Origin: an uncultured Actinomycetota bacterium
Lineage (GTDB): Bacteria; Actinomycetota; Actinomycetes; Propionibacteriales; Nocardioidaceae
Reading direction: 5' to 3'
Assembly: GCA_963760585.1 (NCBI GenBank)
Contig: CAVXDI010000004.1
Coordinates: forward strand, 730,357 to 754,356
DNA length: 24,000 bases
The notes beneath the pieces are model-generated. The model was not told the DNA's origin, did not search any database, and saw nothing but the letters and a program-made list of their open reading frames with translations. The position numbers were made by a program, and so were the translations under genes. This document shows positions 2,887-20,335 of this stretch, piece by piece; positions within the stretch are counted from its first letter, which is position 1, and each line of letters opens with the position of its first letter.

Positions 2887-3129
2887 ATGACCGTCAGCAG
2901 TCAGTCACCCAACGGCACCAGCGACGAGGTCGTGGACTGGACCGACCTGGGGCGCAAGATGTGGAGCTTCCTGACCGGGCGCCACGCCGCCATCAACTAC
3001 CGGTTCATCGACATGAGCGTCGAGGTACCGCGGGACACCGGCAGCAACGCGCCCCGGGCCACGTGGAAGCTGCACGGGACGCTCCAGGTCACCACCGAGG
3101 ACGACGCCTCGACGGACAGCGGGGTCTGA
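2887..3129 (+). CDS. Hypothetical 80-aa protein
   Basis: AAGAGGA Shine-Dalgarno 5 nt upstream of ATG 2887, whereas the track ATG at 2866 has none. High GC3. Its stop TGA (3127-3129) is 2 nt before the next ATG. No family recognised. Confidence 0.5.
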   Translation: MTVSSQSPNGTSDEVVDWTDLGRKMWSFLTGRHAAINYRFIDMSVEVPRDTGSNAPRATWKLHGTLQVTTEDDASTDSGV

Positions 3130-7327: not shown

Positions 7328-8020
7328 ATGAGCAAGATCCTGTTCGTCGTCACCGGTGCCACGTCCTGGACGCTGGCCGACGGCTCCGCGCACCCCACCG
7401 GCTTCTGGGCCGAGGAGCTCGTCGCGCCCTTCCAGACCTTCACGGGCGCCGGCCACGAAGTCGTGTTCGCCACCCCCGCCGGCGTGGTCCCCACCGTCGA
7501 CCGGGGCAGCCTCTCGCCGGAGATGAACGGGGGCCAGGAGAACGCCGACCGGGTCGCCGCCGACCTCGACGCGATCGACCTGTCCGCGCCGCTGTCCCTC
7601 GACGCGGTTGACCTGGACGACTACGCCGCCGTCTTCTACCCCGGCGGCCACGGGCCGATGGAGGACCTCGCGGTCGACGCCACCTCGGCCCGGCTGCTCG
7701 TCGACACCCTGGCCACCGGCAAGCCGCTCGGCATCGTCTGCCACGCGCCCGCCGCGCTGCTGGCGACCGACGTGGACGGTGGCTCGCCGTTCTCCGGCTA
7801 CCGGCTGACCGGCTTCACCAACGACGAGGAGAAGCAGGCCGGTCTGGCCGACCAGGCCAAGTGGCTGCTCCAGGACCGCCTCGTGGCCCTCGGGGCCGAC
7901 TTCGCCGAGGGCGAGCCGTGGGCCGTCAACGTGGTCGTCGACCGCTCCCTGCACACCGGTCAGAACCCGGCCTCCTCCGGGCCGCTGGCCCAGGAGATGC
8001 TCACCGCGCTGGGTGCCTGA
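7328..8020 (+). CDS. DJ-1/PfpI-family (class I glutamine amidotransferase-like) protein
   Basis: AGGAGGA Shine-Dalgarno. KILFVVTGA, GFWAEEL and the nucleophile elbow PLGIVCHAPAALL are present. Confidence 0.85.
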   Translation: MSKILFVVTGATSWTLADGSAHPTGFWAEELVAPFQTFTGAGHEVVFATPAGVVPTVDRGSLSPEMNGGQENADRVAADLDAIDLSAPLSLDAVDLDDYAAVFYPGGHGPMEDLAVDATSARLLVDTLATGKPLGIVCHAPAALLATDVDGGSPFSGYRLTGFTNDEEKQAGLADQAKWLLQDRLVALGADFAEGEPWAVNVVVDRSLHTGQNPASSGPLAQEMLTALGA

Positions 8021-8024
8021 GAGC

Positions 8025-8243
8025 TCAGAGACCGAGCAGGGCCAGGCCCACGGCGACCATCGCGGCCGCGGTGGCGAAGAGCCAGGGGCGCAGCCGGGAG
8101 CAGACCTCGACGCGGTGCCGGATGACGCCGGGGATGTCCTCCACCGGTAGGTGCCGGACGGCGACCAGCTGGGCGATCAGCACGCCGGCCAGCAGCAGCC
8201 CGCCCTGGAGCAGCGGGAGCGCGATCGCCGGGGAGGCTTCCAT
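8025..8243 (-). CDS. Hypothetical 72-aa protein with two hydrophobic segments
   Basis: High GC3 and two TM-like stretches (LLLAGVLIAQLVAV and WLFATAAAMVAVGLALLGL). No clear Shine-Dalgarno. No family recognised. Confidence 0.45.
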   Translation of the reverse strand: MEASPAIALPLLQGGLLLAGVLIAQLVAVRHLPVEDIPGVIRHRVEVCSRLRPWLFATAAAMVAVGLALLGL

Positions 8244-8277
8244 GGCCCGACGGTAGGACGTGAGGACGTCGCGGCCC

Positions 8278-8292
8278 GTCTCATCGTGAGAC
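8278..8292. promoter_or_regulatory. Dyad GTCTCA-tcg-TGAGAC (copy 1 of 3)
   Basis: Read directly. It lies 11 nt beyond the regulator stop codon (8304-8306) and ~35 nt upstream of the 72-aa ORF start. Confidence 0.45.
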
Positions 8293-8303
8293 GCCGCGGC
8301 GCC

Positions 8304-10112
8304 TCACCCCTCCGGGAACACGATCCCGTAGTCGTGGATCTTGCGGTAGATGGTGGCGCGGGAGAGCCCGAGCGAGCGGGCCGCCTGCACCTTGTTGCCG
8401 TGCGCCTCGGTGAGGGAGTGCACGATCGCGTCCCGCTCGAGGGACTCCATGACGCTCAGCACCCGCCGGCTCACCGCGTGCACCTCGGCCGGGAGGTCCT
8501 CCGGCGAGATGGTGCCGGTGCGTCGGTGGGACACCACCTCCCGCAGCGTCTCGTGCAGCTGGGCGACGTTGCCCGGCCAGGGCATCCGCATCAGCAGGCG
8601 GGTCGCCGCGGGGGAGCAGCTGAGGTTGGCGTGCCCCAGGCGGGCCAGGAAGACCGGCACCAGCAGGGCCAGGTCGTCGATGTGCTGGCGCAGCGGTGGC
8701 ACGGTCAGCGAGCTGGGGAAGGCCTGCAGGAGCTGGTGCAGGGCCGGCTCCCGTGGCCCCTGTCCCAGCGTGGCGGCGACCCACAACCGGCGCTCGCCGC
8801 CCGTGCGCCGCGCCTCGGTGAGCGTCGTCGTCAGCCGGCGCAGGACCGGGACGGGCAACCGGTCGACGTGCCGCAGCACGACCACGTCCGCGTCCCGGGT
8901 GAGAACCCGGTGGGCCTCGGCGGACCAGTCGCGCACGGTCGCCACGTCCTCGGCGTCGAGGACGGCGAAGCGGCCCACCGGCTGGCGACGCAGCTGCACG
9001 GCCCGCAGCATGGCGAGCTTGCCGACCCCCGCCTCGCCCTCCACGGCCAGCCACTCGCCGGAGCGGAAGATCCGTTCGAGCTCCTCGCTGGCGTGCAGCC
9101 ACGACTGCCCGGTGCCGACGAGCCCGGGCAGCGCTGCGCGGACCCGCACGGTCGGGCCGTGGGACGGGGTCTCCCCGGCGCCGTTCCGAGTCAGCTTGAC
9201 GTGGGCCACCACCCCCGCGGCCCGGTCCCCGTCGCGCACGGCACGGCAGTAGAGCCGTGCAGAACCTCCGCTGGGCAGGTCTACCAGGTGGGTGCGCGCC
9301 CCGCGAGCGTCACTGGCCCGGGCCAGCAGGGTCGCCTGGTCGTCGGGGCTCAGCAGCAGCCGGGCGTACTCGTTGAGCATCACGACGTCGTCGTTGAGGG
9401 CGAACACCACCTCGTTGCCCCGTCCGCAGGCCCGCATGTACTCCCGGAGGAGCCGCAGCTGTCCGGCCCCGGCGTCCGCGAGCAGCGCCTCGCGAATCTG
9501 CTCCGCCGTGGTGCGCGCCAGGGTGAGCAGGAGGGCGCCGGCGTCCTTGCGCCAGCAGGTCAGGTCGACCGCGCCGAGCAGCCGCCCCGAGACGGGGTGG
9601 TGGATGGGCACGCCGGCGCAGGCAAGGTCCTCGAGGTGCTCGGCGTAGTGCTCGTGGCCGAAGACGTGGGCCGGGCCGCCGACCTCGAGGGCGGTGCCGA
9701 TGCCGTTGGTGCCCACGTACTTCTCGGCGTAGCTGAACCCGGGGGCGAGGAGCACCTGGTCGAGGTGCTTCTCGAGCACGACGTCGTCGGTGAGCCGGCT
9801 GAGCACGAGGCCGGTCGGGTCGGTGAGGATCACGCTGACCGCCTGGCCGCCGAGCCGCTCCTTGAGGCTGCGCAGCACCGGCGCCGCGCTCCGGACCAGC
9901 GGGGTGTCGAGGGGGAGGTCGTCGGAGTAGCGCATCTCGAGCTTGTCGGCGGCGACGCTGAAGTCCTGCGAGCGGTGCCACGAGGCGAGGATCGGGTCCC
10001 GCACCGAGTCGGTGTCCTGCACGTCGGCGGTGAGGAAGTGCTCACGGCTCGACGCCGCCCTGGGCTGGTCGACGCCATGCGCATCCCCCGGCGAACCAGA
10101 TCTTGGTCTCAC
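8304..10112 (-). CDS. mimR: GAF / AAA+ / Fis-HTH transcriptional activator (AcoR/MimR-like, bEBP-related but without GAFTGA)
   Basis: GAF-like GTNGIGTALEVG...GVPIHHP, Walker A GEAGVGK, PPLRQHIDDL, WPGNVAQL, and C-terminal HTH AARSLGLSRATIYRKI. GTG start. It is divergent from the monooxygenase operon. Confidence 0.85.
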   Translation of the reverse strand: MRPRSGSPGDAHGVDQPRAASSREHFLTADVQDTDSVRDPILASWHRSQDFSVAADKLEMRYSDDLPLDTPLVRSAAPVLRSLKERLGGQAVSVILTDPTGLVLSRLTDDVVLEKHLDQVLLAPGFSYAEKYVGTNGIGTALEVGGPAHVFGHEHYAEHLEDLACAGVPIHHPVSGRLLGAVDLTCWRKDAGALLLTLARTTAEQIREALLADAGAGQLRLLREYMRACGRGNEVVFALNDDVVMLNEYARLLLSPDDQATLLARASDARGARTHLVDLPSGGSARLYCRAVRDGDRAAGVVAHVKLTRNGAGETPSHGPTVRVRAALPGLVGTGQSWLHASEELERIFRSGEWLAVEGEAGVGKLAMLRAVQLRRQPVGRFAVLDAEDVATVRDWSAEAHRVLTRDADVVVLRHVDRLPVPVLRRLTTTLTEARRTGGERRLWVAATLGQGPREPALHQLLQAFPSSLTVPPLRQHIDDLALLVPVFLARLGHANLSCSPAATRLLMRMPWPGNVAQLHETLREVVSHRRTGTISPEDLPAEVHAVSRRVLSVMESLERDAIVHSLTEAHGNKVQAARSLGLSRATIYRKIHDYGIVFPEG

Positions 10113-10209
10113 GTAGCCCCCATCTCTGCTGTCCCCTGTGGCGAGCCTAGGCGCTCGTGCGGCCCGGGTCGAGGCTCTGCGAGTCTCCTCGATCGCGTGG
10201 CCGGGGCGT

Positions 10210-10240
10210 GTCTCAGATTGAGACGGTGACCGCGGTCACC
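10210..10240. promoter_or_regulatory. Dyad GTCTCA-gat-TGAGAC (copy 2 of 3) abutting the perfect 16-bp palindrome GGTGACCGCGGTCACC
   Basis: Read directly. It lies in the divergent region between the regulator start (10112) and ATG 10308. Confidence 0.5.
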
Positions 10241-10307
10241 CGGCGTAACGTCCGCGGCCTAGCGAGAGGGCGACCCCTCGGGTCGTCCCGCGAAGGAGGC
10301 ACCGCCG

Positions 10308-10613
10308 ATGAGCAACACCGAGGACCGGGCAGAGAACCGGCCGGAGGACCGGGCGGGCGACCGTGGGGGCGAACGGGCCGGCGGCGGGGATCCCGAGACG
10401 TTCAACCCGTGGAGCGTGGTCAACCTGGTCTTCACGCATCTCGCGGACCAGGGGCTGCACCCCGTCCTCGGCGACAGCGGGGACCCGGGCCCCCCGGCCG
10501 AGCAGCTGTTGCGGGCGCTGGGGATCGAGCCCGCCCCGGAGGGCAACCGCGAGGTCATGCGCGGGGTTCACGCCCACCTGGCGGAGATCCGGGAAGCGTT
10601 CGAGAGGCGCTGA
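10308..10613 (+). CDS. Hypothetical 101-aa protein with a low-complexity acidic/Arg N-terminus
   Basis: GAAGGAGG Shine-Dalgarno 8 nt upstream of the ATG, and high GC3. No family recognised. Confidence 0.55.
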   Translation: MSNTEDRAENRPEDRAGDRGGERAGGGDPETFNPWSVVNLVFTHLADQGLHPVLGDSGDPGPPAEQLLRALGIEPAPEGNREVMRGVHAHLAEIREAFERR

Positions 10614-10641
10614 CCCCGACGCTCGCCGCGGTGTGACCTCC

Positions 10642-10665
10642 GTCTCAACCTGAGACCTTGACCGC
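10642..10665. promoter_or_regulatory. Dyad GTCTCA-acc-TGAGAC (copy 3 of 3) followed by a TTGACC -35-like hexamer; candidate operator/promoter of the monooxygenase operon
   Basis: Read directly. It lies 60-83 nt upstream of ATG 10725. I could not identify a convincing -10 hexamer. Confidence 0.5.
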
Positions 10666-10724
10666 CGGGTTCTGGGGCTTTCATGGCACTCACACGACCA
10701 CCGATCGTTCAGGAAGGAGTGGAG

Positions 10725-12377
10725 ATGACTCGCCAAAGCGTGGCCAAGGCTCACGAGAAGATTCAGGAGCTGGCCTGGGAGCCCCTCTACCACAAGCCGG
10801 TGTCTCAGTACGGCACGGACTACACGTTCCAGAAGGCCAAGAAGAAGGACCCTCTCAAGCAGGTGCTGCGGTCCTACTTCCCCATGCAGGAGGAGAAGGA
10901 CCACCGCGTCTACGGCGCCGCCGACGGCGCGATCCGCGGCAACATGTTCCGCCAGGTCCAGGAGCGCTGGCTGGAGTGGCAGAAGCTCTTCCTCTCGATC
11001 ATCCCGCTGCCGGAGATCTCCGCCGCCCGCGCGATGCCCCTGCTGTTCAACACGGTCCCGAACCCCGAGCTGCACAACGGGCAGGCGATCCAGATGATCG
11101 ACGAGGTACGGCACTCGACGATCCAGCAGAACCTCAAGCGCCTCTACATGAACAACTACATCGACCCGGCCGGCTTCAACTCGAGCCTGCGCAACTTCCA
11201 GAACGACTACTGCGGCACCATCGGCCGGCAGTTCGCGGAGGGCTTCATCACCGGCGACGCCATCACCGCAGCCAGCATCTACCTCACGATCGTCGCCGAG
11301 ACGGCGTTCACCAACACTCTCTTCGTCGCGATGCCCGCCGAGGCGGCCGCGAACGGTGACTACCTGCTGCCCACCGTGTTCCACTCGGTGCAGTCCGACG
11401 AGTCGCGCCACATCAGCAACGGCTACGCGACCCTGCTGATGGCGCTGGCCGACGAGGGCAACCACCAGCTGCTCGAGCGCGACCTGCGTTACGCCTGGTG
11501 GAACAACCACCGGGTGGTCGACGCCGCGATCGGCACCTTCATCGAGTACGGCACGAAGGACCGGCGCAAGGACCGCGAGAGCTACGCCGAGATGTGGCGT
11601 CGCTGGATCTACGACGACTACTACCGCTCGTACCTCGTGCCGTTGGAGAAGTACGGCCTGGTGATCCCGCACGACCTCATCGAGGAGTCCTGGAACCAGA
11701 TCTGGAACAAGGGCTACGTCCACGAGGTGGCCCAGTTCTTCGCCACCGGGTGGCTCGCCAACTACTGGCGGATCGACCCGATGACGGACAAGGACTTCGA
11801 GTGGTTCGAGTACAAGTACCCGGGCTGGTACGACAAGTACGGCGCCTGGTGGGAGAACTACTCCCGCCTGTCCGTGGCCAACGGTCACCACCCGATCGTC
11901 GCCGAGGACGTCAACTACCAGTACCCGCACCGGTGCTGGACCTGCATGGTGCCGTGCCTGGTCCGCGAGGACATGGTCATGCACGAGGTCGACGGGCAGA
12001 TGCGCACCTACTGCCACGAGGCCTGCCGCTGGACCGACGTGGAGGCCTTCCGCCCGACCTACCAGGGTCGCGAGACCCCGAACATGGGCCAGCTGATCGG
12101 CAAGCGCGAGTGGGAGACGCTCTACCACGGCTGGAACTGGGCCGACGTGGTCTCCGACATGGGCTACGTCCGCGACGACGGCCACACCCTGGTCGCGCAG
12201 CCGCACCTGGACCTGAACCCCAAGAAGATGTGGAACCTGGACCACCTGCGCCGGATGCCCCCGCTGCTCAGCCCCAACGTCATCCTCAACGAGATGTCGC
12301 CCGAGGAGCAGCAGGCCTTCCACGCCGACTACATCAAGGGAGGTCCGGCGGGCCGCCCGGCGGCCGCCAACAACTGA
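10725..12377 (+). CDS. mimA: Soluble di-iron monooxygenase hydroxylase alpha (large) subunit, MimA/PrmA type
   Basis: GGAAGGAG Shine-Dalgarno before ATG 10725. Two di-iron motifs are present: ELHNGQAIQMIDEVRH and ETAF...VQSDESRH. The conserved blocks RGNMFRQVQERWLEWQKLFLSIIP and HRCWTCMVPC are also present. Confidence 0.95.
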   Translation: MTRQSVAKAHEKIQELAWEPLYHKPVSQYGTDYTFQKAKKKDPLKQVLRSYFPMQEEKDHRVYGAADGAIRGNMFRQVQERWLEWQKLFLSIIPLPEISAARAMPLLFNTVPNPELHNGQAIQMIDEVRHSTIQQNLKRLYMNNYIDPAGFNSSLRNFQNDYCGTIGRQFAEGFITGDAITAASIYLTIVAETAFTNTLFVAMPAEAAANGDYLLPTVFHSVQSDESRHISNGYATLLMALADEGNHQLLERDLRYAWWNNHRVVDAAIGTFIEYGTKDRRKDRESYAEMWRRWIYDDYYRSYLVPLEKYGLVIPHDLIEESWNQIWNKGYVHEVAQFFATGWLANYWRIDPMTDKDFEWFEYKYPGWYDKYGAWWENYSRLSVANGHHPIVAEDVNYQYPHRCWTCMVPCLVREDMVMHEVDGQMRTYCHEACRWTDVEAFRPTYQGRETPNMGQLIGKREWETLYHGWNWADVVSDMGYVRDDGHTLVAQPHLDLNPKKMWNLDHLRRMPPLLSPNVILNEMSPEEQQAFHADYIKGGPAGRPAAANN

Positions 12378-12417
12378 GCGGCCGGCACCTCCACGATGCA
12401 CCACTGACGGACGAGCA

Positions 12418-12444
12418 CCGGGCCGGCCGAGAAGGCCGGCCCGG
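12418..12444 (+). promoter_or_regulatory. Intercistronic stem-loop (11-bp all-G/C stem, 5-nt loop) between the alpha-subunit and reductase genes
   Basis: ccgggccggcc-gagaa-ggccggcccgg read directly. It ends 17 nt before ATG 12462 and has no U-tract. Confidence 0.6.
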
Positions 12445-12461
12445 GGACGGGAAAGGGTTCC

Positions 12462-13502
12462 ATGGGCGAGAAGCATGTCGTGCGGTTCGAGCCCGTCGGC
12501 ATCGAGATCGAGGTCGACGAGGAGCAGAACGTGCTCCGCGCCGCGGCCGAGCAGGGCATCACGCTCATGCACGGCTGCAAGGAGGGCCAGTGCGCCGCCT
12601 GCAAGTCGTTCGTCCTCGACGGTGACGACATCGAGCTGGACAAGTACTCGACGTTCGCCCTGCCGGACTTCGAGCTCGACGAGGGGTTCACGCTCCTGTG
12701 CCGGGCCCACGTCTACGAGGACGTCACGATCGAGCTTCTCAACTACGACGAGGAGATGCTCCGCTCCGGCCACCCGATCGTGGAGGCGGTCGCCGAGGTG
12801 GTCTCCAAGGACCACGTCACCCACGACATGCGGCACCTGGTGCTCAAGCTCGTGGAGCCCACGGAGATCGCGTTCTGGCCCGGCCAGTACATCGACATCG
12901 CGATCCCCGGCACCGAGGAGACCCGATCGTTCTCGATGGCCAACGTCTCCAGCAAGGACGGCGGGCTGCTCGAGTTCATCATCCGGTGCTACCCGGACGG
13001 CCGGTTCTCGAGCTTCCTCGACACCGAGCTCTCCGTCGGGGACCAGCTCCAGGTCACCGGCCCGTTCGGAGTCTTCACCCTGCGTGACGGACGCGACTCC
13101 GACGTCGTCTTCGTCGGGGGTGGGGCCGGGATGGCGCCGATCCTCTCGGTCCTGCGGGCCATGGCCGAGCGGGGCAGCACCCGCAAGGCGACCTTCTACT
13201 ACGGGGCGCGCACACAGCGTGACCTCTGCTTCGAGAAGGAGCTCCGCGCGCTCAGCGAGGCGTGGCCCACCTTCCGCTACGTCCCGGCGCTCTCCGAGGC
13301 CGACGACAGCGAGCCCTGGGACGGCGAGGTGGGTCTGATCACCGACGTCGTACGCCGGCATGAGACCGATCTCTCGGAGACCGACTCCTACGTCTGCGGT
13401 CCGCCGCCGATGGTCGAGGCGGCCATGGAGGTGCTCGACGCGCTCGGGGCCCCCGAGAAGCACATCTACTACGACAAGTTCACCACCACCGGTTCGTCCT
13501 GA
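12462..13502 (+). CDS. mimB: SDIMO NADH oxidoreductase (2Fe-2S ferredoxin + FNR-like FAD/NAD domains), MimB/PrmB type
   Basis: Plant-type cluster CKEGQCAACKS...LLCRAH, FAD motif RSFSMAN, and NAD motif VFVGGGAGMAP. Confidence 0.9.
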   Translation: MGEKHVVRFEPVGIEIEVDEEQNVLRAAAEQGITLMHGCKEGQCAACKSFVLDGDDIELDKYSTFALPDFELDEGFTLLCRAHVYEDVTIELLNYDEEMLRSGHPIVEAVAEVVSKDHVTHDMRHLVLKLVEPTEIAFWPGQYIDIAIPGTEETRSFSMANVSSKDGGLLEFIIRCYPDGRFSSFLDTELSVGDQLQVTGPFGVFTLRDGRDSDVVFVGGGAGMAPILSVLRAMAERGSTRKATFYYGARTQRDLCFEKELRALSEAWPTFRYVPALSEADDSEPWDGEVGLITDVVRRHETDLSETDSYVCGPPPMVEAAMEVLDALGAPEKHIYYDKFTTTGSS

Positions 13503-13527
13503 CGGACGGCCCGCGAGAGCGAGGCGG

Positions 13528-14709
13528 ATGCACATGACCACCGAGGTCGCCCAGGAACGCAGCTCACCGAAGCCGGAGTTCACCGACGCCGAGGCCGGCG
13601 CCAAGGTCTTCCCCGACTCCACGCTGCGGCACTACAACTACTTCACCCCACAGAAGCGCAAGCAGTCCCACTACGAGGACGTCACCGTCGAGGTGCAGCC
13701 GGACCCCCGCCACTACCTCGCCCAGGGCTGGCTCTACGGCTTCTCCGACGGTCGTGGCGGCTACCCGCTGGAGTGGACGAAGCTGAAGGCGTGGGGCGTG
13801 GACCGGGGCGACCCGGAGCGCTACCCCGGGTCGGGCGGCAAGGGCTACGAGTGGCCGGCCCACGGCTGGCACGAGTTCCGGGACCCGAACGAGGAGTGGG
13901 AGCTCACCTTCTACCGCAACAACTCCAACGTCGTGCGCCAGGTCACCCAGAACATCGAGACGGCGCGGGAGACCAAGGCCTTCGAGCAGTGGAACCCGAA
14001 CTGGGTGACCTTCGTCGAGCGCAACGTCGGTGCGTGGATGCACGTCGAGCAGGGCCTCGGGCTCTACCTCTTCGCCAACGCCCAGCGGCGCGCTCCCACC
14101 AACATGCACAACAACGCGATCTCGGTGAACAGCATGCACCGGCTCCGGTTCGCCCAGGACCTCGCGCTGTACAACCTCACGCTCAGCCAGGAGATCGAGG
14201 GCTTCGACGGGACTGCGCACGTCGCGACGTGGAACGAGGACCCCGCCTGGCAGGGCGTCCGTCGGGTCGCCGAGGAGATGACCGCGATCGACGACTGGGG
14301 GGAGGCGATCTTCGTCGCGAACATCATCTTCGAGCCCCTCGTCGGTGAGCTGTTCCGCAGCCAGCTGGTGCAGCAGGCGGCCCCGGGCAACGGCGACTTC
14401 GTCACGCCGACCGTGGTCGGTGCCGGGGAGTGGGACTACGCCTCGCGGGACCTGCGGTACACCAAGGCGATGTTCGAGCTGCTCACCGACGACAAGGAGT
14501 TCGCCGACCACAACAAGGGCCTGATCGACGGGTGGCTCGCCAGCTGGGTGCCCAAGTGCCTGGTCGCCGCCCGCCAGCTGCAGCCGATCTGGTCGCAGCC
14601 GGACTCCAAGCCCCCGCGCTTCGAGGACGGTCTCGACCGCGCCAAGAGCCGGTTCAGCGTCATCCTCACGGAGCTGGGCCTGACCATCCCGAAGGAGCTG
14701 ACCCAGTGA
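13528..14709 (+). CDS. mimC: SDIMO hydroxylase beta (small) subunit, MimC/PrmC type
   Basis: Assigned by its position between the reductase and coupling-protein genes and by ferritin-like helical content. Start is ATG 13528 or ATG 13534, with GAGG at 13521. The track ORF from 13360 overlaps the reductase. Confidence 0.8.
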
Positions 14710-15101
14710 CCGGATACCAGTCGACCCAGACGTCGTACGCGACCACCGAGAGCGCGTTCAAGTCCGACAACACCCCGTCCAACAAGTGTGGCGTCACCCT
14801 GATGAACAACCAGGTCGGCGCCGTGATGGCGGAGGTCATGCGCGACAAGGAGGGGGTCACGGTGACCCCGCTCCCGTCGATGATCCGCGTCGACGGCACG
14901 AGCCGGATGGACTTCGTCTACGACGAGATCTCCGAGGCCCTCGGAGAGGAGGAGGGATCCTTCGACGCCGCCGGGTTCGAGGAGAACATGTCGACCCACT
15001 ACGGCCGGATGATCCACGAGGACGACCGGACGATCATGTTCGCCAACCCCGAGGACGCCGCGGAGTACATCGGCTTCGACCTGAAGACCTACGAGAAGTG
15101 A
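14706..15101 (+). CDS. mimD: SDIMO coupling/effector protein (MmoB/DmpM family), MimD/PrmD type
   Basis: [18 protein letters not shown]...PSMIRVDG...MSTHYGRMI resembles MmoB/DmpM. GTG 14706 overlaps the beta-subunit stop (GTGA) and GAAGGAG lies 8 nt upstream. ATG 14802 is an alternative start. Confidence 0.8.
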
Positions 15102-15138
15102 GCCGGTCGGACTGATCCCGCAACCCCCAGGAGGAACC

Positions 15139-16182
15139 GTGTACCAGAAGGACGGCGAGAACTACTTCATCGTCGACAGCCACATGCACTACTGGGACGC
15201 CAGCCCGGCGAACTGGGTGGCCGGCCAGGAGAACTACGCCAAGGGCTGGATCGAGTGCTTCCACGCCTACCAGGGGCTCGGGCCCCCCGAGACGCACTGG
15301 TCGATCGAGCACTTCCAGAAGTACTCCGAGCAGGACCTCATGAAGGACGTCTTCGAGGACGGCCACGTGGACGTGGCGGTCTTCCAGCCGACGTATCTCA
15401 AGGAGTGGTACTCGGAGGGCTTCAACACCACCGAGAAGAACGGTGCGCTCTCGGAGAAGCACCCCGGCAAGTTCATCGTCAACACGCGCTTCGACCCACG
15501 CGACGGGGATCCGGGGCTGAGGGCGTTCGAGGAGAACGTCAAGCGCTGGGGCTCGACGGGCATCAAGCTCTACACCGCCGAGTGGAACAACGGCTCGCGC
15601 GGCTACAAGCTCTCGGACCCGGCGTGCTACCGCTTCCTGGAGAAGGCCCAGGAGCTCGGCGTGAAGAACGTCCACGTGCACAAGGGGCCGACGATCTGGC
15701 CGCTGGACAAGGACGCCTTCGACGTCAGCGACGTCGACCACGCGGCGACGGACTTCCCCGAGCTCAACTTCATCGTCGAGCACGTCGGTCTGCCCCGCAT
15801 CGAGGACTTCTGCTTCATGGCGACCCAGGAGCCGAACGTGTACGCCGGCCTGTCGGTGGTCATCGGCGGCCTGATGTACGCCCGGCCGAAGTTCTTCGCC
15901 AAGGTGATGGGCGAGCTGCTGTTCTGGGTCGGCGAGGACAAGATGACCTTCGGCAGCGACTACGGCATCTGGGAGCCGAAGTGGCAGATCGAGGGGTTCG
16001 TCGACTGGGACTACCCCAGTGACGAGTTCTCCGACTACCCGCGGGTGAACACCGCGACCAAGAAGAAGATCCTCGGCCTGAACGCCGCGAAGCTCTACGG
16101 CATCGAGGTGCCCGAGGAGTGCCGACTGCCCGACGACGCCGGTACCCCGGCGGCGCAGGAGGACGCGGTGTTGGTGGAATGA
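15139..16182 (+). CDS. Amidohydrolase-2 (metal-dependent TIM-barrel hydrolase) family protein
   Basis: AGGAGGAA Shine-Dalgarno with a GTG start. N-terminal IVDSHMHYW metal-binding motif, and C-terminal FGSDYGIWEP. Confidence 0.85.
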   Translation: MYQKDGENYFIVDSHMHYWDASPANWVAGQENYAKGWIECFHAYQGLGPPETHWSIEHFQKYSEQDLMKDVFEDGHVDVAVFQPTYLKEWYSEGFNTTEKNGALSEKHPGKFIVNTRFDPRDGDPGLRAFEENVKRWGSTGIKLYTAEWNNGSRGYKLSDPACYRFLEKAQELGVKNVHVHKGPTIWPLDKDAFDVSDVDHAATDFPELNFIVEHVGLPRIEDFCFMATQEPNVYAGLSVVIGGLMYARPKFFAKVMGELLFWVGEDKMTFGSDYGIWEPKWQIEGFVDWDYPSDEFSDYPRVNTATKKKILGLNAAKLYGIEVPEECRLPDDAGTPAAQEDAVLVE

Positions 16183-16226
16183 CGGTCGGCGGCACGAGGA
16201 CTGGTGGGATGACGGTCGGCGGCACG
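16173..16226 (+). repeat. Direct repeat ggtggRatgacggtcggcggcacg, two copies spaced 30 nt, 23/24 identical
   Basis: Read directly. It duplicates the start codon and gives MTVGGTRTGG-MTVGGTA. Confidence 0.9.
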
Positions 16227-16924
16227 GCGACCCGGGCGGAGGTGCTCGCCGCTCTCGAGGCGGTGCGTGACCCCGAGCTCGACGAGCCGGTGACGTCGCT
16301 CGGTTTCGTGTCCTCGTGCGCCGTCTCGGCGGCGGGCGACGCCCAGGTGCGGTTGCGGTTGCCGACGTTCTTCTGCGCTCCCAACTTCGCCTTCCTCATG
16401 GTCGCCGACGCCTACGACGCGGTCAGCCGCGTCCCGGGCGTCCGTCGGGCCGAGGTGATCCTCGAGGACCACTTCGCCGGCGACGCCATCAACCGCGGCG
16501 TCGCCGCCAGGGCCGGCTTCGAGGAGTCGTTCGAGGGGCTGGCCGACGGTGAGCTCGACGAGCTGCGCACCGACTTCGTCCGCAAGGCGGTCCTGGCCGG
16601 CACCGACCGGGTCTGCCGGCCGATGCTGGCCGCCGGCCGTACCACCGAGGACCTCGCCGCGCTCAACCTCGGCGACGCACCGGCCTCGGCGGACCGGGAA
16701 CGGCTGCGTTCGCGGCGCGCCGAGCTCGGTCTGCCGGCGGACGACGACTCGCCCCTGCTCGTCGACGCCACGACGGGGGAGCGGATCGACGTCGAGGCCC
16801 TGCCCCTGCACCTGCGACGCACCCGGCTCACCCGGGTGAACACCGAAGCCAACGGCAGCATGTGTCGCGGGATGCTGCTCCATCGCTATGGAACCCCCGG
16901 TCAGGGAGAAGTGGAGGAGGTCCG

Positions 16925-16928
<4 letters not shown>
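16179..16928 (+). CDS. DUF59 (MIP18/PaaD-like, metal-cluster-assembly-related) domain protein with a ~140-aa C-terminal extension
   Basis: EVLAALEAVRDPELDEPVTSLGFV...VRLRLPT..C resembles DUF59. ATG 16179 overlaps the amidohydrolase stop (ATGA). A second ATG at 16209 arises from a duplicated 24-nt block. Confidence 0.7.

Positions 16929-20335
<3,407 letters not shown>

Follow-up and report, generated by a model that had tools for sequence, protein, structure and literature searches.

The window, by which we mean the whole 24,000-nt stretch of DNA that was analysed, carries a soluble di-iron monooxygenase operon of the prm/mim type, a MimR-family regulator gene on the opposite strand, and two small open reading frames (Table 1). 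The operon encodes the alpha subunit, reductase, beta subunit, coupling protein (MmoB-like), an amidohydrolase, an FeS-assembly/DUF59 protein (FeS_assembly_P), a Zn-alcohol dehydrogenase, and a GroEL-like chaperonin (Cpn60). The product of the 101-aa ORF, called the small ORF below, has no match in Pfam or NCBIfam, and its AlphaFold model (pLDDT 61) is too weak for a fold search. The 72-aa ORF likewise has no Pfam match, and its sequence suggests that the product is probably a membrane protein with two transmembrane segments.

The regulator has the architecture of the MimR family, that is, MimR_N, MimR, AAA_lid_14, and HTH_8, together with a GAF domain. Precomputed Pfam matches for a protein 100% identical to it (P0001) are PF26961 (MimR), PF26965 (MimR_N), PF25601, PF01590, and PF02954, and an older copy of Pfam confirmed GAF, AAA_lid_14, and HTH_8. 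Its AAA+ domain is degenerate, with a Walker A motif (GEAGVGK), no GAFTGA, and no DE Walker B, the position reading LRHVD. Because it also lacks any match to Sigma54_activat (PF00158), even at E = 10, we do not regard this as a sigma-54 system. The best NCBIfam match is a partial one to DhaR (124 bits vs. a cut-off of 551). In many databases, such proteins from actinobacteria are annotated as "sigma-54-dependent Fis family" or "AcoR."

Table 1. Features of the window, numbered from its first nucleotide
Feature	Position	Strand	Remarks
72-aa ORF	8025..8243	-	Hydrophobic; predicted target of dyad 3
Predicted -10, TACCGT (TAnnnT)	8250..8255	-	22 nt from dyad 3
Dyad 3, GTCTCAtcgTGAGAC	8278..8292		Spacer TCG; predicted MimR box, leftward promoter of 72-aa ORF
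MimR-family regulator	8304..10112	-	GAF, degenerate AAA+, AAA lid, Fis-type HTH_8
Candidate regulator-gene -10, TAGGCT	10145..10150	-	60 nt from middle dyad; outside class II register of most relatives
Dyad 2 (distal, middle copy), GTCTCAgatTGAGAC	10210..10224		Spacer GAT; predicted MimR box, small-ORF promoter
16-bp perfect palindrome, GGTGACCGCGGTCACC	10225..10240		Fills the gap from dyad 2 to its -10
Predicted -10, TAACGT	10246..10251	+	21 nt past dyad 2; start predicted near 10258
101-aa ORF	10308..10613	+	Shine-Dalgarno GAAGGAGG; belongs to a large family of uncharacterised ~82-aa proteins
Dyad 1 (proximal), GTCTCAaccTGAGAC	10642..10656		Spacer ACC; predicted MimR box, monooxygenase operon promoter
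-10-like hexamer, TTTCAT	10679..10684	+	22 nt past dyad 1; start predicted near 10691
prm/mim-type soluble di-iron monooxygenase operon	10725..19739	+	Alpha subunit to GroEL-like chaperonin

Three perfect dyads, GTCTCA-N3-TGAGAC, lie around the regulator and the monooxygenase promoter, all of them in intergenic DNA. A motif search of both strands bore out the first-pass annotation, which had listed these three identical 6+6 inverted repeats, with their positions and spacers, as intergenic and as the only full copies in the window. Its view that they are not random also held, as 100 dinucleotide-preserving shuffles of the window gave no perfect dyad vs. the three observed. Allowing up to two mismatches adds a single site, at 3124, no more than chance would give. 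The window has nine TGAGAC hexamers, six of which fall inside the three dyads.

The surroundings of each copy had been described correctly as well. TGACCGC follows both rightward copies at the same 2-nt offset (10227-10233 and 10659-10665), and the 16-bp palindrome does abut the middle copy, although it is specific to the window and not conserved as such in relatives. Dyad 3 sits within a longer palindrome, CGCGGCccGTCTCAtcgTGAGACGCCGCG; its end is 11 nt past the regulator stop codon (8304-8306), and its start is 34 nt (earlier given as ~35 nt) from the ATG of the 72-aa ORF (8243).

Conservation of the dyad across relatives

The comparison covered about 1.02 Mb in 80 related loci, drawn from a diverse range of Actinomycetota, and in these 105 perfect dyads were observed vs. 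0.026 expected. All except four of these (101/105) stand at two homologous places, one upstream of the alpha gene of the monooxygenase and the other upstream of a conserved ORF of ~82 aa. The distal dyad is perfect in 71 of the 80 relatives, and the dyad is present at both positions, with at most one mismatch, in 73. With its flanking bases it reads T-GTCTCA-N3-TGAGAC-C, and the element has been seen in at least five actinobacterial orders.

The regulator keeps the same company. Of the 80 loci, 77 have an adjacent orthologue (45-64% identity), which adjoins a prm/mim cluster that includes the GroEL-like chaperonin, and the recognition helix SRATIYRKI is invariant among the homologues. More distant loci (Rhodococcus plasmids, R. 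opacus PD630, Gordonia, and a Mycobacterium MAG) have perfect dyads despite a different gene order and regulators that are 42-45% identical. In these, the dyad stands before the regulator gene, followed after 21 nt by TAnnnT, and before prmA, followed after 22 nt by TTGTAT or TTTCAT; the R. opacus locus compared ends inside prmA.

The dyad also moves with its targets, since relocated or additional genes have dyads of their own. One relocated small ORF is preceded by GTCGCA-N3/4-TGAGAC, and a detached amidohydrolase-DUF59-ADH operon (L031) has a dyad, 22 nt, and then TGTCAT. Homologues of the 72-aa ORF are found in just two of the 80 loci, L004 and L012. Both of these also have a perfect third dyad, followed by TAGGTT at 23 nt (L004) or TAACGT at 22 nt (L012). 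Because the homologues occur only where the perfect third dyad and a TAnnnT at 22-23 nt are kept, we read the third copy as a promoter site that probably drives the 72-aa ORF. The A of its ATG is the seventh nucleotide after TACCGT, which implies a leaderless transcript. Three options had been offered for this copy at the outset. The comparison favors the promoter site for the 72-aa ORF; autoregulation is not evident in the window, and a terminator would lack its T/U tract.

Promoter anatomy

A TnnnnT hexamer lies exactly 22 nt past the proximal dyad in 70 of the 80 loci, and leftward of the distal dyad TAnnnT is found at 21-23 nt in 62 of 76. In most relatives the distal dyad is shared by two divergent promoters. 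With a -10-like hexamer 21-22 nt after the dyad, the center of the dyad falls near -42, and in the aligned relatives the -35 region contains no information besides the dyad itself. An activator site of class II, standing in for the -35 element, would be expected at this position; for the window's organism, we infer the start from one mapped in a homologue, which anchors the promoter register.

That start was mapped in Rhodococcus sp. BCP1, where the butane-induced start of prmA was located by primer extension, 7 bp past TTGTAT and 55 bp before the start codon (Cappelletti et al. 2015, PMC4428276). TTGTAT is likewise found 22 nt past the dyad in a Gordonia locus (L086), where the predicted leader is about 57 nt, and in L001. 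TTTCAT, the hexamer of the window, recurs at the same spacing in a Mycobacterium locus.

The -10 hexamers differ between promoters. TAnnnT is found at the leftward promoters and, in the window, at those of the small ORF and the 72-aa ORF. At the alpha-gene promoters the hexamer is T-g-T-g-A-T, and just 2 of 62 sequences have A at position 2; the near absence of this A from the rightward hexamer is atypical for sigma-A promoters and counts against the class II reading given below. A scan of 7900-10900 with a generic sigma-70 consensus returned no match, this type of scan being uninformative for high-GC actinobacterial promoters.

Other promoter elements were tried and set aside. The hexamers TTGACC and GTGACC had been proposed as -35-like elements; they are not conserved, and they lie merely 14-15 nt from the conserved -10-like hexamers. 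The accompanying idea of an activator abutting the -35 is supported in so far as dyads stand immediately next to the predicted promoters of the alpha gene and the 101-aa ORF, but it is the dyad itself that occupies the -35 region. TGGCAC at 10683-10688 was rejected as a sigma-54 promoter, as it lacks both a TTGC 5 nt on and a -12 element and shows no conservation, and as the regulator has no GAFTGA.

The dyads as probable binding sites of the regulator

We consider it highly likely, from this comparative evidence, that the dyads are DNA-binding sites ("MimR boxes") of the neighboring MimR-type activator, through which it would exert class II activation of the monooxygenase operon and of the two small genes. 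The earlier proposal that they are operators of the adjacent GAF-AAA-Fis regulator thus finds strong comparative support. A regulator dimer would bind each dyad through its invariant Fis-type helix-turn-helix, centered near -42 in place of a -35 element. The GAF domain may sense an inducer, which by analogy with mycobacterial MimR could be acetone, 2-propanol, or a propane-derived compound. The bound regulator would then recruit or activate a sigma-70-type RNA polymerase, by class II activation and not by sigma-54 enhancer action. The predicted outputs are P(alpha) for the monooxygenase operon, P(sORF) for the 101-aa ORF, and the leftward promoter for a leaderless mRNA of the 72-aa ORF.

Further observations count against this reading. 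In the window, one has to go 60 nt leftward from the middle dyad to reach a TAnnnT, vs. 21 nt in most relatives, which leaves the regulator's own promoter out of register with any dyad. The half-sites are 9 bp apart from center to center, which is short for a helix-turn-helix dimer. In BCP1 the published -35, CAGATC at 16-18 bp from the -10 (PMC4428276), does not obviously coincide with the inferred dyad register.

It is worth considering whether another, unlinked factor, such as a repressor or a global regulator (catabolite or stress), binds the dyad while the MimR-type protein acts elsewhere. We think this improbable. It draws on the fact that the pairing of protein and dyad comes from sequence comparison, and on the CRP-like TGTGA-N6-TCACA that about a quarter of the loci have close to the proximal -10; in the window, TTTCAT overlaps such a sequence (TTTCA-N6-TCACA, 10679-10694). 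The prm genes of BCP1 are also described as catabolite-repressed, with CRP sites proposed in the promoter (PMC4428276). The dyad, however, is not itself a CRP site: it has TGAGAC half-sites and a 3-nt spacer, and the CRP-like sequences are separate from it, downstream, and confined to a subset of loci. Moreover, whatever the gene order or taxon, no regulator gene other than that of the MimR homologue is always found with the dyad, which also stands at this gene's own promoter. The small-ORF and DtxR genes are missing from many dyad-bearing loci. A center near -42 without a -35 element is also the usual layout of an activator site.

To a repressor model, in which the MimR-type protein would occupy an operator overlapping the -35 until an inducer releases it, we give equally little credence. 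A site over the -35 could serve repression or activation alike, and in the regulator promoters of R. opacus and R. aetherivorans there are tandem dyads 17 bp apart, one copy of which covers the core promoter. The target promoters, however, have no recognisable -35 and a weak -10, and therefore would be silent without help. Deletion of mimR in mycobacteria reportedly abolishes acetone-induced expression of mimABCD, which also argues for an activator and against a repressor.

That the dyads act as RNA hairpins, with the third copy in particular terminating the regulator transcript, is very improbable: although the third copy with its GC flanks does fold on the regulator strand (-18.9 kcal/mol, z = -2.8) directly past the stop codon, it has no T/U tract after it, a terminator scan finds nothing there, the extension of its stem into the flanks is not kept by L004 or L012, the other two copies are located upstream of the predicted starts and fold no better than shuffles (10210) or into a weak hairpin (10642; -7.7 kcal/mol, z = -2.3), and over about 180 sites it is the half-site sequence, not merely its pairing, that is invariant, with no compensatory changes. 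A secondary terminator role for copy 3 alone is a limited possibility.

Returning to the MimR-box reading, a bolder version of it can be formulated, which we hold to be unlikely. Here, the regulator would be a descendant of the sigma-54 enhancer-binding proteins (EBPs) that was rewired to -42 on sigma-70-type promoters. The base A(-11) is normally flipped out by sigma-70-family factors, and T-g-T-g-A-T would avoid it, which would call for an unusual open-complex mechanism, via AAA+-assisted melting or a dedicated sigma factor. The box would also tie the ~82-aa family and, in some genomes, DtxR-type metal regulators to induction of the monooxygenase.

Significance and comparison with known systems

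The dyad is very probably a fairly ordinary if well-conserved regulatory element. MimR-type regulators control monooxygenases that oxidise propane, acetone, and 1,4-dioxane, and are of interest for bioremediation and biosensors. A 15-bp box with a fixed promoter geometry lends itself to regulon prediction by genome scan, to the design of inducible promoters, and to direct tests, and it points to two predicted targets, the 72-aa ORF with its probable membrane protein and the family of ~82-aa proteins. A mechanistic question also arises, namely by what means an EBP relic that works independently of sigma-54 would activate promoters whose -10 is atypical.

We know of no published MimR operator. 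A literature search for a MimR binding site returned nothing relevant beyond PMC4428276 and a review, and no published operator or binding experiment. In BCP1, a palindrome that covers the -35 region was described as conserved and proposed as the site of the neighboring Fis-family regulator; the available text contains no palindrome consensus and no binding data (PMC4428276, 2015). The review, from 2022, lists the prm regulators as "sequence analysis only."

The layout resembles that of class II CRP/FNR promoters, with their activator at -41.5, in that a dyad near -42 replaces the -35. The protein family and the motif are unrelated, and the -10 is without its usual A at position 2. With the sigma-54 EBPs (NtrC, AcoR, XylR/DmpR, and BmoR) the regulator shares an ancestral domain layout and the control of hydrocarbon or ketone catabolism. 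Its dyad, however, is 22 nt from the -10, whereas EBP sites are 80-150 bp upstream, and there is no conserved -24/-12. Actinomycetota are not, to our knowledge, known to encode sigma-54.

Also comparable are DhaR and TyrR of E. coli, EBP-like regulators that act at sigma-70 promoters. They too combine a sensor domain, an AAA+-like domain without the GAFTGA contact to sigma-54, and a Fis-type HTH. They are not orthologous and use other DNA motifs, no PAS domain was detected in the window protein, and the effector logic of DhaR differs, being controlled by the DhaK/DhaL proteins.

Among the nearest known systems is MimR/mimABCD of Mycolicibacterium smegmatis and M. goodii. The window differs from it in that its protein is about 42% identical to the Mycobacteriales homologues, and in two extra genes predicted to be dyad-driven (the small ORF and the 72-aa ORF), which are missing from those loci. 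The regulator family is nevertheless the same, as is the prm/mim di-iron cluster with its GroEL-like chaperonin, and the homologue in the Mycobacterium MAG shares both the dyad and its spacing.

A dyad shared by related monooxygenase loci

The monooxygenase cluster is of the typical prm/mim soluble di-iron type, with genes for the alpha subunit, reductase, beta subunit, MmoB-like coupling protein, amidohydrolase, FeS-assembly/DUF59 protein, zinc alcohol dehydrogenase, and GroEL-like chaperonin. A pattern search of the window returned the three perfect GTCTCA-N3-TGAGAC dyads reported in the first-pass annotation, which had also called them non-random; none occurred in 100 dinucleotide-preserving shuffles. 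Allowing up to two mismatches added one site, at 3124, which is the chance level, and the three dyads account for six of the window's nine TGAGAC hexamers. Its smaller observations were likewise accurate: TGACCGC lies two nucleotides downstream of both rightward dyads, the 16-bp palindrome GGTGACCGCGGTCACC is present, and dyad 3 lies 11 nt from the regulator stop and roughly 35 nt from the 72-aa open reading frame (ORF72). The palindrome is window-specific and occupies the spacer from dyad 2 to the -10 element.

Coordinates of features in the window and of dyad-like sites before metal- and peroxide-related genes in other loci (L numbers)
Feature	Position	Strand or direction	Details
ORF72	8025-8243	-	72 aa, hydrophobic
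Dyad 3 predicted -10 element	8255-8250	leftward	TACCGT, spacer 22
Dyad 3	8278-8292		GTCTCA-N3-TGAGAC
Regulator gene	8304-10112	-	602 aa: GAF, AAA+ lid, Fis-type HTH_8
Dyad 2 (distal)	10210-10224		GTCTCA-N3-TGAGAC
Palindrome	10225-10240		16 bp
Distal promoter, predicted -10 element	10246-10251		TAACGT, spacer 21
Small ORF	10308-10613	+	101 aa
Dyad 1 (proximal)	10642-10656		GTCTCA-N3-TGAGAC
Proximal promoter, predicted -10 element	10679-10684		TTTCAT, spacer 22
CRP/GlxR-like site	10679-10694		TTTCA-TGGCAC-TCACA, 2 mismatches to TGTGA-N6-TCACA; overlaps predicted monooxygenase -10 and start
Alpha subunit gene	10725-12377		right of regulator and small ORF
Dyad before DtxR gene	L031 12053-12067		perfect
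Dyad before DtxR gene	L051 1448-1462		one mismatch
Site before Fur-KatG pair	L081 9014-9028		2 mismatches; Rhodococcus plasmid

Scanning a genome collection with the alpha subunit gave 80 loci (alpha 90-97% identical; about 1.02 Mb) spread widely across the Actinomycetota: Kribbella, Actinoplanes, Asanoa, Amycolatopsis, Kutzneria, Kibdelosporangium, Rhodococcus rhodnii, and many MAGs. Comparison of the related regulator-to-alpha regions, proposed with the original reading, found the dyad kept. It is perfect in 79 of the 80 loci, the remaining one covering only 209 nt upstream of the alpha-subunit gene, and 105 perfect copies were observed against the 0.026 expected from base composition. All but four of these (101/105) fall 60-210 nt ("proximal") or 210-950 nt ("distal") upstream of the alpha start, and 73/80 loci have both sites at one mismatch or fewer. 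Upstream and in divergent orientation, 77/80 encode a regulator orthologue (45-64% identity).

Of the 79 loci with a homologue of the small ORF (conserved residues 30-98), 75 have it between the two dyads; in L021, L029, L035, and L060 it has been relocated to the far side of the regulator gene, and three of these four copies have their own upstream GTCGCA-N3/4-TGAGAC. A perfect dyad, 22 nt, and TGTCAT precede a detached amidohydrolase-DUF59-ADH operon in Virgisporangium (L031).

Two Rhodococcus plasmids, R. opacus PD630, Gordonia, and a Mycobacterium MAG encode regulator homologues that are only 42-45% identical; here the regulator gene follows groEL and points the same way. The regulator genes are still preceded by perfect dyads, with TACGCT, TAGCCT, or TACTCT 21 nt further on, and so is prmA, where the hexamer 22 nt on is TTGTAT in Gordonia, TTTCAT in Mycobacterium, and TTCACT on the R. 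aetherivorans plasmid. The small ORF is missing from these loci (L081-L087), which rules out its product as the protein that binds the dyad. On the R. aetherivorans BW2 plasmid (L083, 3337-5067) prmA is truncated, its C-terminal part being out-of-frame sequence, and prmB, prmC, and prmD are not annotated between it and the zinc-binding dehydrogenase gene; the truncated gene is still preceded by a perfect dyad with 22-nt spacing.

Promoter geometry

Aligning loci on the dyad extends the motif to T-GTCTCA-(A/T)(G/T)(G/T)-TGAGA-C-C. TnnnnT follows the proximal dyad at exactly 22 nt in 70/80 loci (TnTnAT in 52; consensus T-g-T-g-A-T), with no well-conserved sequence in the interval among the dyad-aligned loci. 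The distal dyad has the same layout on its right: the spacing is 22 nt in 47/76 loci, and another 20 loci have 21 or 23 nt. On its left lies the canonical actinobacterial TAnnnT of the divergent regulator promoter, read on the minus strand; 49 loci place it 21 nt from the dyad, and a further 13 place it at 22-23 nt. A GTCAC-like pentamer recurs 4-5 nt downstream of the dyad in many relatives.

With the hexamer taken as the -10 element, the dyad centre lies near -42, a class II arrangement, the binding site taking the place of a -35 element. Support for this assignment comes from Rhodococcus sp. BCP1, where primer extension placed the butane-induced prmA start at a C 55 bp before the start codon, 7 bp past TTGTAT (Cappelletti et al. 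2015, PMC4428276); the same hexamer stands 22 nt past the dyad in Gordonia L086 (predicted leader about 57 nt) and in L001, a close relative of the window. The -35 proposed for BCP1 prmA is CAGATC (PMC4428276), which shows no obvious match to the dyad register used here. TTGACC and GTGACC, put forward as -35-like hexamers in the first-pass annotation, were rejected as -35 elements, as they are not conserved and lie only 14-15 nt from the -10 elements.

Position 2 of the rightward -10 is A in only 2/62 non-redundant sequences; the leftward promoters of the same dyads use TAnnnT. The lack of this A may keep the promoter silent without activator, may reflect a different sigma factor, or may arise from overlap with a CRP-like half-site. 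In 19/80 loci the proximal -10 is overlapped by a sequence resembling TGTGA-N6-TCACA (two mismatches or fewer; a perfect match in L050), and none occurs at the distal promoters of the 80 relatives. Such a site at the monooxygenase promoter would fit BCP1, for which CRP sites were proposed and catabolite repression shown (PMC4428276).

The suggestion that dyad 3 serves as a promoter site for ORF72 gained support: homologues of this ORF occur only in L004 and L012, exactly the two of the 80 loci that retain a perfect third dyad, followed by TAGGTT at 23 nt and TAACGT at 22 nt, respectively. In the window its ATG (8243) lies six nucleotides past TACCGT, and the mRNA is therefore predicted to be leaderless.

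Autoregulation, also suggested, is not evident in the window. The regulator TAnnnT is off the 21-nt register there and in the closest relatives (22 to 60 nt), lying 60 nt from the dyad in the window. An additional GAGAC half-site (10181-10188), 22-23 nt left of the distal dyad and shared with the close relatives L001 and L003, occupies the regulator -10 position of other clades. Regulator promoters of R. opacus PD630 (L084, 9919-9950) and an R. aetherivorans plasmid (L081, 5898-5929) carry tandem dyads 17 bp apart centre to centre, the second over the core promoter; these may combine activation with autorepression.

The regulator and its proposed mode of action

The best NCBIfam match of the regulator is E. 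coli DhaR, far under cut-off, and an identical database protein (P0001; 100%) carries the newer Pfam families PF26965 (MimR_N) and PF26961 (MimR). Furuya et al. reportedly named MimR in 2011 as an activator needed for acetone-induced mimABCD expression. The recognition helix SRATIYRKI is essentially invariant across all 82 homologues, in contrast to the rest of the protein, which diverges; this fits an invariant DNA target. We propose that a regulator dimer would bind each dyad through its Fis-type HTH, that an inducer sensed by the GAF domain would convert it into an activator, and that it would then act on sigma-70-type RNA polymerase from about -42.

That the dyads function as RNA hairpins is unlikely. 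Window-specific CGCGGC...GCCGCG flanks extend dyad 3 (8270-8298) into a hairpin of -18.9 kcal/mol directly past the regulator stop, where a secondary terminator role is possible; however, this is the only strong hairpin of the three and depends on those flanks, and the dyad sites show neither a U tract nor compensatory variation. Repression by MimR at the dyads is disfavoured because a -35 element is absent and the -10 is weak, and occupation by a different transcription factor because the MimR gene alone goes with the dyad throughout. A sigma-54 enhancer system was rejected: the GAFTGA contact loop is absent from the window regulator (Walker A GEAGVGK, LRHVD at the acidic Walker B position), Sigma54_activat gives no match to it even at E = 10, the site lies 22 nt rather than 100 nt from the promoter, relatives have no conserved -24/-12 element, and sigma-54 is not known from Actinomycetota. 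The original reading of the dyads as operators of the adjacent regulator is very probably correct at its core; its promoter details are wrong.

Other dyad-linked genes and known systems

What lies downstream of the regulator gene differs between loci. In the window, L004, and L012 it is ORF72, preceded by a perfect dyad; in L024, L026, L034, L046, L047, and L050 it is a GPR1/FUN34/YaaH (acetate-transporter-like) gene, about 2.4-2.6 kb upstream of alpha, preceded by a conserved variant of the dyad, TTCTCAGTTTGAGCC or CTCTCAGTTTGAGTC, which may be a weaker MimR box. DtxR-family iron-dependent repressor genes (Fe_dep_repress and FeoA domains) directly follow dyads in two loci, which, together with the Fur-KatG site, suggests a possible link from monooxygenase induction to metal or peroxide homeostasis.

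The small ORF belongs to a large hypothetical-protein family (about 82 aa; 2066 clusters, none with a Pfam domain) with a strongly conserved core, ETYNPWSVVNLVFTHLADQGLHPVLGESGDPG...EGNREVMR...AHLAEIR. Its AlphaFold model has three helices and a pLDDT of 61, too weak to interpret; the product might be an assembly or regulatory accessory resembling DmpK or MmoD.

Our literature search found no binding study on a prm/mim regulator, and a 2022 review gives the prm regulators as "sequence analysis only." In BCP1 a conserved palindrome spans the -35 region, and the authors suggested that the neighbouring Fis-family regulator binds it (PMC4428276). Judged from sequence, the element described here, the proposed MimR box, is a new, well-documented instance of this already suspected regulator-operator pair (MimR and the palindrome noted in 2015), to which it brings a usable consensus and a fixed geometry.
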